NCBI GenBank assembly: GCA_964473825.1
Contig: CAYYQL010000002.1
Location: 32,001 to 96,000, forward strand
Length of the DNA: 64,000 nt
Direction of reading: 5' to 3'
Source of the DNA: an uncultured archaeon
Lineage (GTDB): Archaea; Asgardarchaeota; Thorarchaeia; Thorarchaeales; Thorarchaeaceae
A program made the translations under genes and the position numbers. Positions 4,416 to 35,425 of the stretch are shown here, piece after piece (within the stretch, counting starts at the first letter, position 1; every line of letters starts with the position of its first letter). Under the pieces are notes generated by a model. It worked only from the letters and a program-made list of their open reading frames with translations. It was not told where the DNA came from and ran no database searches.

Positions 4416-4854
4416 AACCGGCGAACAGCGTCTACTCAGACAAGAAACAGGATGTGTGCGATTCTGTGACTGAAAAGATCACTTGTTCCTCCAAGAGTCT
4501 ACTGCATCCATGCATATGATAGCAACGCTCTATGCCGCGCGGTCATAGCTTCTGGTGTATCGCCACAGAACAATACAGCCTACCACTACGATGGGAACTA
4601 CGATGAGGACAGCCAGAAGAAAGGGGTCTGGACCTAGAGGTGGTAAAACGACATCCTGCAAAGCTATCACTCCCAGCCATGAATCAGAGAGTGTGCTATT
4701 ACGCTTTCTACCGTGTGTCAGGAAGTGTTCAGAGTACTGTTGCCAAGCGCTCCATAGCGAGCAATCAGAGATTCGCCCATTGACAATGTGACGGAGTTCT
4801 TGTATCGGGATAGCAATCTTAATATTCAATCCGTGGCCGTTCTGCGTTGCACTT

Positions 4855-5050
4855 GCCGCCGTGGCTCAGCCGGTAGTTGTTGTTCCTCTTGAGGAGCAGC
4901 AGCTGAAAGCGACAACGCCTTGCACTCCGCAATGCGGCGCTCTAGCCTGTTACCTTTCGGTCAGGTGGCCGAGAGCCAGACAGTTGTAGTGCATCACGCT
5001 TCGTGATGTGCGACGTATGGTCCCAGGTTCAAGTCCTGGCGGCGGCGCCA
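4855..5050 (+). tRNA. tRNA-Asn(GTT) with four predicted introns (4877-4907, 4914-4943, 4953-4981, ~4990-5019)
   Basis: Spliced product GCCGCCG TG GCTC AGCCGGTA GAGC G ACAGC CTGTTAA GTTGT AGGTC CCAGG TTCAAGT CCTGG CGGCGGC G CCA (76 nt); each insert is a hairpin; GCCGCCG acceptor and G73 match archaeal tRNA-Asn. Confidence 0.85.
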
Positions 5051-35348: not shown

Positions 35349-35425
35349 GGGCCGATGGCTCAGCCCGGTAGAGCGACAGGCTCTTAACTTGTTGGTCGCG
35401 GGTTCGAATCCCGCTCGGCCCGCCA
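35349..35425 (+). tRNA. tRNA-Lys(CTT), intronless
   Basis: GGGCCGA...ACAGG-CTCTTAA-CTTGT...GCGGG-TTCGAAT-CCCGC-TCGGCCC-G-CCA. Confidence 0.95.

Follow-up and report, generated by a model that had tools for sequence, protein, structure and literature searches.

The window, a 64,000-nt stretch of DNA, carries a tRNA-Asn(GTT) gene at positions 4855–5050 (plus strand), the ends of which lie 196 nt apart. The host genome is a Thorarchaeota MAG of 95.7% completeness, and the proteins encoded beside the locus match MAGs titled Candidatus Thorarchaeota. The gene starts at 4855 as GCCGCCG-TG-GCTC-AGCCGGTAG, where GCCGCCG is the 5′ strand of the acceptor stem. It closes with the T arm CCAGG-TTCAAGT-CCTGG, the complementary acceptor strand, a discriminator G and an encoded CCA that runs to 5050. 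The computed fold of the 196-nt RNA contains the acceptor stem and the T arm with four hairpins between them (−92.8 kcal/mol, z = −4.2 versus shuffles). A sequence-only reading of the same DNA had proposed a tRNA-Asn(GTT) gene with exactly these ends, split into micro-exons by four bulge-helix-bulge (BHB) introns, and this proposal is borne out by orthologs lacking all or some of the introns, by the BHB register, by covariation and by the splicing enzymes of the genome.

The boundaries of the inserts were set without reference to any splicing motif, by a spliced alignment of the uninterrupted gene of G035, a genome of the same family, with the window gene. This alignment placed the inserts at 4877–4907, 4914–4943, 4953–4981 and 4988–5017. 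All parts of the gene lie on the plus strand. Exon 1 (4855–4876) covers tRNA positions 1–22, namely, the acceptor 5′ strand, U8, the 5′ strand of the D stem, the D loop and G22. It is followed by intron 1 (4877–4907, 31 nt, at 22/23), which has the central helix CGGT/GCTG, the bulges AG↓T and AA↓A (arrows mark the assumed cuts) and a 10-bp inner stem. Exon 2 (4908–4913, AGCGAC) comprises 6 nt, corresponds to positions 23–28 and is invariant in 29/29 parsed orthologs. Intron 2 (4914–4943, 30 nt, at 28/29) has the helix AGCG/CGCT and the bulges AC↓A and CT↓A. Exon 3 (4944–4952, AGCCTGTTA) contributes the 9 nt of positions 29–37, including the anticodon GTT, and is likewise invariant in the orthologs. 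Intron 3 (4953–4981, 29 nt) occupies the canonical site 37/38, with the helix CTGT/CCAG, the bulges TA↓C and AC↓A and a 9-bp inner stem. Exon 4 (4982–4987, AGTTGT, 6 nt) supplies positions 38–43 and is followed by intron 4 (4988–5017, 30 nt, at 43/44), with the helix AGTT/GACG, the bulges GT↓A and TA↓T and a 10-bp inner stem (4989–4998/5002–5011). Exon 5 (5018–5050) covers positions 44–76 and consists of the variable loop TGGTC, the T arm, the acceptor 3′ strand, G73 and CCA (5048–5050).

For introns 1, 2 and 3, the motif-free alignment reproduced to the nucleotide the coordinates given by the sequence-only reading, which had also described the helix of intron 3 as relaxed. Intron 4 had been put at about 4990–5019 (45/46), and its true place is 2 nt upstream. 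Consequently, the sizes of 6 and 9 nt proposed for the first two internal exons stand, while exon 4 comprises 6 nt and not the 8 nt (4982–4989) suggested before.

Removal of the four introns (29–31 nt) restores a canonical tRNA: exons of 22, 6, 9, 6 and 33 nt join into a 76-nt cloverleaf. The product shows the features of tRNA-Asn, with GUU in a 7-nt loop, U33, A37, the discriminator G73 and canonical arms. G73 and the anticodon are identity elements for AsnRS. The corrected product is annotated by ARAGORN as tRNA-Asn(gtt) and is identical to the uninterrupted G035 gene at 75/76 positions, and the differences between them are a D loop shorter by one base and one difference in the T loop. The five exons as originally proposed also gave a 76-nt product with the GTT anticodon, annotated by ARAGORN as tRNA-Asn(gtt) with a perfect cloverleaf, so the earlier claim about the spliced molecule holds, with the correction at intron 4.

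The intronless genes of G035 and G013 are 77 nt long and score 70.1 bits on the Rfam model RF00005. At 4855–5050, no call was returned by ARAGORN in default mode or by the Rfam tRNA model, as had been expected for standard scanners. When introns were allowed, ARAGORN recovered the same gene ends, but reported a tRNA-Ile(gat) whose D stem is defective and whose single intron, of 119 nt, lies at 30/31. The sequence-only reading had named an equally good cloverleaf from fewer introns among the outcomes that would overturn the four-intron structure, and this model is a candidate for it. The gene ends are shared, but the D stem of this model has only three pairs and includes a mismatch, its anticodon stem contains two G-U pairs, and its intron falls within the anticodon stem and lacks a BHB. 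In addition, the mature sequence it predicts is matched by no ortholog, the genome has a normal tRNA-Ile(GAT) at C2:268744–268820, and the four-intron product matches the intronless gene at 75/76 positions. We therefore rejected the single-intron model on its D stem, on its BHB-less stem intron and on the orthologs, and the probability that any such parse is correct is negligible.

The orthologous loci of related Asgard genomes were compared for intron gain and loss, as the sequence-only reading had recommended. In a DNA search of 60 related genomes, almost every one of the 36 family members yielded the locus. Twenty-nine orthologs were read by a parser keyed to the conserved exon blocks and three more by eye, giving 32. 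Left unscored were G004, G030 and G032, in which the pattern matches were not tRNA-Asn genes, and G011, in which a contig end truncates the gene. The exon blocks AGCGAC, AGCCTGTTA, AGTTGT and TGGTC are invariant in the 29 fully parsed orthologs, and it is precisely at these junctions that inserts of 23–34 nt (mostly 29–32 nt) occur or are missing. Across the 32 family orthologs, the number of introns per gene ranges from 0 to 5, distributed over six positions. A fifth intron, found in the T loop at 59/60, occurs in 22/29 orthologs, with a mean of 3.4 of 4 central pairs, and is absent from the genus of the window genome.

The distribution can be written as five digits for positions 22/23, 28/29, 37/38, 43/44 and 59/60, where 1 means that the intron is present. 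The pattern 11110 is shared by the window genome (G000) and G002 of the same genus, whose gene spans the full 196 nt with 93% identity and the same four introns. Another genome of this genus, G001, shows 01110 and lacks intron 1 only; exactly these 31 nt (query bases 23–53) are missing. The pattern 01111 was found in G027. Five introns (11111) are present in G036 (L005) and G031 (L006), and the tRNA-Asn genes of relatives thus carry up to five introns. The patterns 11101 and 00111 occur in five genomes each, 10111, 10101, 10100 and 01101 in one genome each, 00101 and 00100 in two genomes each, and 00011 in four, while 00000 is represented by G035 and G013. Intron 2 is missing from 17/29 orthologs, with the exons joined exactly at 28/29, and intron 3 from 6/29 parsed orthologs. 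Outside the family, a 130-nt tRNA-Asn gene of G053 (L030), which belongs to another family of the phylum, was read by eye and contains three inserts at different positions. Heavy interruption of tRNA-Asn is therefore not confined to one family.

In the BHB geometry assumed here, four exon bases precede a 3-nt bulge in which the cut falls between the second and third bases, and the last six bases of the intron comprise the partner strand and two bulge bases. The central helix of intron 1 has 4/4 pairs, two of which are G-U, and that of intron 2 has 4/4 Watson–Crick pairs; in all four introns, an intron stem adjoins the motif. Introns 3 and 4 are relaxed motifs, because their central helices have 3/4 pairs. 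In intron 3, the outer helix is the anticodon stem, and in intron 4, the inner stem is the 10-bp helix described above. At the register given by the intronless orthologs, the BHB scores across orthologs were 7.2, 6.6, 6.8 and 7.2 of 8 for introns 1–4, respectively, and this register was the best among equal-length shifts for 4/4 introns. The comparison also bears on a version of the gene in which intron 4 stays at 45/46 (4990–5019) and the mature tRNA would contain A44. Its product has 76 nt as well, differs by one base from the 43/44 product and is accepted by ARAGORN as tRNA-Asn. However, this register scores 4.2 of 8 against 7.2 for 4988–5017, and its product matches the intronless gene at 74/76 rather than 75/76 positions. 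Moreover, all orthologs without intron 4 read AGTTGT-TGGTC, i.e., T44, whereas the 45/46 register would make base 44 vary (A or G) among the intron-bearing orthologs. Intron 4 at 45/46 is thus very unlikely, and we place it at 43/44.

Covariation was counted on gapless intron alignments, with slid partners and shuffles as controls. For intron 1 (8 orthologs), 90.6% of the cells were paired versus 33–51% after sliding, and compensatory changes were observed in 11 pairs, including 10/10 pairs of the inner stem. The corresponding values for intron 3 were 91.3% versus 28–47%, with compensatory changes in 4 pairs (15 orthologs), and for intron 4, 88.3% versus 19–50%, with compensatory changes in 5 pairs (14 orthologs). 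The observed covariation score was reached by no shuffle; since the sequences are related, this significance is overstated, while the slid controls and the double changes are independent of kinship. Base 17 of the D loop covaries with the last base of the central helix of intron 1 as C-G, A-U or U-A, and these two bases form the first central pair of that intron. All four motifs can be accommodated in one structure without using any base twice (−78.1 kcal/mol). In the minimum-free-energy fold at −92.8 kcal/mol, some stems run through the bulges, which are not displayed there. Judged by motif, the four inserts are BHB introns of the archaeal tRNA type, and the retained pairing indicates that their helices are probably kept by selection.

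A box AGCAATCTTAATATT is located upstream of the gene at 4812–4826 (plus strand), its last base lying 28 nt from the mature 5′ terminus. It probably represents a BRE/TATA promoter. The 15-nt consensus of the box, CAGCAAYGTTAATATTG, was found 24–31 nt upstream in 29/29 parsed orthologs with any intron number, and in the family consensus, the box is often an inverted repeat, GCAAT-N6-ATTGC. The sequence GCAANNTTAATATT has a single occurrence in the window genome, and the box is therefore specific to the tRNA-Asn gene. We also considered the box as a general tRNA promoter signal that could reveal hidden genes, and this use was rejected because it occurs once in the genome.

Whether this is the only tRNA-Asn gene of the genome, a question raised by the sequence-only reading, was checked by several searches. 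One Asn exon chain exists in the window genome, and neither ARAGORN, Rfam nor the exon-chain scan found a second tRNA-Asn in this 95.7%-complete assembly. It could be argued that 4855–5050 is a degenerating tRNA pseudogene into which hairpins have been inserted and that a working tRNA-Asn is encoded in the unassembled part: the MAG consists of 103 contigs, about 4% of the genome is missing, and scanners reject the locus. Against this, more than 25 genomes show invariant exons and compensatory changes that preserve the motif helices, the box in front of the gene is conserved, the genome yielded no second Asn exon chain, and the interrupted architecture is that of the sole Asn gene recovered in most relatives. 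A pseudogene is highly improbable on these grounds. The introns were also considered as dispersed repeats or MITE-like hairpin insertions. Each intron matched only itself in the genome at E < 0.01, and further matches were 15–16 nt long (E = 0.011–0.047), so this was rejected for want of further copies in the genome. We conclude with high confidence that 4855–5050 (plus strand) is a single, functional tRNA-Asn(GTT) gene with four BHB introns at 22/23, 28/29, 37/38 and 43/44. Splicing itself, its order and the exact cut sites are predictions from the sequence.

The genome encodes two EndA paralogs, in the regions C3:103320–103574 and C2:166335–166595, each with the domains PF01974 and PF02778. 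The 188-aa paralog is closest to the catalytic subunits of Aeropyrum, Sulfolobus and Pyrobaculum. It aligns with the catalytic subunit of Aeropyrum pernix without gaps over the Crenarchaea-specific loop and retains a Lys at the site corresponding to A. pernix residue 44. The 221-aa paralog is closest to the Methanopyrus heterotetramer. An RtcB protein is encoded as well (E = 5e-182). According to Kaneta et al. 2018 (PMC5829648), Asgard archaea have an (αβ)2 EndA with the Crenarchaea-specific loop, non-canonical introns are cut only by such EndA types, and incomplete tRNA sets of Asgard archaea point to undetected disrupted genes; the gene at 4855–5050 is one of these. The host thus possesses a two-paralog EndA of the crenarchaeal type, predicted to be active on non-canonical sites, and a predicted RNA ligase.

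The maturation of this tRNA may proceed as follows. A primary transcript of about 200 nt would start from the conserved TATA-type box. Its fold, as the sequence and covariation show, comprises the acceptor stem and the T arm together with four hairpins in tandem. In each hairpin, four exon bases pair with the bases just upstream of the 3′ end of the intron, forming a 4-position central helix that is flanked by two 3-nt bulges and followed by the intron stem. The two-subunit crenarchaeal-type EndA would then cut after the second base of each bulge, making eight cuts, and RtcB would join the five exons by four ligations into a 76-nt tRNA with the encoded CCA. End trimming would complete the process. 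The D arm and the anticodon arm would form only after splicing. The EndA and RtcB steps are proposed from the genes present and from the published biochemistry of related enzymes.

The order of the reactions may be constrained by the 6-nt exons 2 and 4. Each of them consists of the four central-helix bases and two bulge bases of the next intron, and its first base also forms the third position of a bulge in the preceding intron. Because these exons sit inside neighbouring motifs, sequential removal, in which each intron is cut out and the exons are joined before the next one, seems more plausible than eight cuts made first. In the latter case, nothing but four base pairs with an excised intron would retain a free 6-mer. 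Such exons pose a biochemical question of how the pieces are held from cutting to joining.

In a simple genome scan, 18/33 recognisable tRNA genes were longer than an uninterrupted tRNA, and the Asn gene was the longest (193 nt). Four further tRNA-like genes of 124–163 nt are located in the window genome at C17:42257–42419, C6:60945–61078, C2:170608–170737 and C10:8102–8225. Given these lengths together with matching acceptor ends and T arms, they probably contain two or three introns each. ARAGORN and Rfam did not recover about 12 expected anticodons (e.g., Trp, Thr-GGT/TGT, Pro-TGG and Glu-CTC), and the corresponding genes may be hidden by interruption likewise. The window also contains an uninterrupted tRNA-Met(CAT) at 1–65, cut by the window start, and an uninterrupted tRNA-Lys(CTT) at 35349–35425, and compact and interrupted tRNA genes thus coexist on one contig. 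Annotation pipelines would list the window genome as lacking tRNA-Asn. The Rfam tRNA score decreases with the number of introns, from 70 bits in their absence through 58 (one intron) and 40 (three introns) to no match with four. In part, therefore, the tRNAs missing from Asgard sets are an artefact of interrupted genes.

The intron patterns were then compared with a tree of RtcB from 33 family genomes (L061–L098). On this single-gene tree, the fewest changes for the five positions were 9, 9, 4, 9 and 7, which is about equal to the values for shuffled labels (means 6.6–11.3). GTDB genera are mixed inside; for instance, g6 holds 11111, 00111 and 01101. The scattered pattern may reflect rapid intron loss, allele exchange or the assignment of contigs to a wrong MAG. 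Within one genus, the four-intron gene of G027 (L004) and the intronless genes of G035 (L016) and G013 (L021) share an upstream flank that is 78–89% identical over 1.2–1.5 kb; the genes are allelic. On the downstream side, the sequences of G027 and of G035/G013 do not align. This arrangement would fit gene replacement from the 3′ side or loss via a spliced copy. In G023 (L019), the 5′ exon is present a second time in truncated form (GCCGCCGTGGCTCAGTCGGT...), about 145 nt upstream of the tRNA-Asn gene, and is followed by unrelated sequence. This copy may have been left by a rearrangement or by an element that integrated there.

The sixth intron position was found in G003 (L042), G018 (L046) and G005 (L043), in which a 30-nt intron with 4/4 central pairs interrupts the T stem at 50/51. 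Aligned without gaps, this intron is identical to members of the intron 4 family at 20–24/30 positions, where the median within that family is 21, compared with medians of 8–14 for the other intron classes. Its 3′ helix strand GGCT pairs with both AGTT (38–41) and GGTC (45–48). One intron may therefore have been relocated between 43/44 and 50/51, as the two sites offer the same pairing. The on/off pattern resembling shuffled labels, the common flank of the intronless and four-intron alleles and the intron family found at 43/44 in most genomes and at 50/51 in three lead us to a tentative suggestion, which we regard as possible but rather doubtful, that tRNA-Asn keeps a live record of BHB-intron mobility, combining pairing-guided relocation with wholesale loss via a spliced copy. 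Relocation would occur by reverse splicing or by re-insertion through an RNA intermediate. If this were true, slow vertical decay would not fit the data.

To our knowledge, the published maximum in Thermoproteales is three introns per tRNA gene. The tRNA-Asn genes described here, with four introns in the window genome and five in relatives, exceed this number and belong to a different phylum, and the four introns of the window gene have no copies elsewhere in its genome. In other respects, the multi-intron tRNAs of Thermoproteales (Sugahara et al. 2007, 2008; Marck and Grosjean 2003), cited in PMC4090602 and PMC5829648, are similar: BHB introns occupy canonical and non-canonical positions, the EndA is (αβ)2 with the Crenarchaea-specific loop, RtcB performs the joining, and related introns occur at different positions. 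Several BHB-type introns outside 37/38 in a single tRNA gene are also known from the red alga Cyanidioschyzon merolae and from nucleomorphs (PMC3728597; PMC4090602). However, these are eukaryotic nuclear or nucleomorph genes processed by a different endonuclease complex, and the likeness is only architectural.

The closest systems were described in the same phylum. Valentin-Alvarado et al. 2024 (PMC11291895) reported introns in 92–95% of the tRNA genes of Atabeyarchaeia and Freyarchaeia and several introns in more than half of the tRNA genes. In their preprint, Goswami et al. 2026 (10.64898/2026.10.13.758758) describe up to five intervening sequences per gene, many D-arm introns missed by tRNAscan-SE and an enrichment at BHB boundaries, and leave the route of arrival unidentified. 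The statement of the sequence-only reading that no four-intron archaeal example was known is, in view of the five per Asgard gene given in the preprint, out of date, and the four-intron tRNA-Asn is an extreme but already described kind of gene. Common to those Asgard tRNAs and to our gene are multiple short non-canonical introns, often in the D arm, BHB boundaries, introns missed by annotators and two EndA paralogs. In contrast, those studies are centred on other classes, and Thorarchaeota are not treated in the main text of the preprint or in the text of PMC11291895. A four-intron archaeal tRNA is no longer surprising by itself, and the comparative series is more useful. Unlike those studies, the Thorarchaeota series follows one orthologous gene through 0–5 introns at six positions in one family, with each intron class recognisably conserved in sequence. 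It offers a compact natural system for the question of how archaeal tRNA introns arrive and leave, which is the one left by the 2026 preprint.
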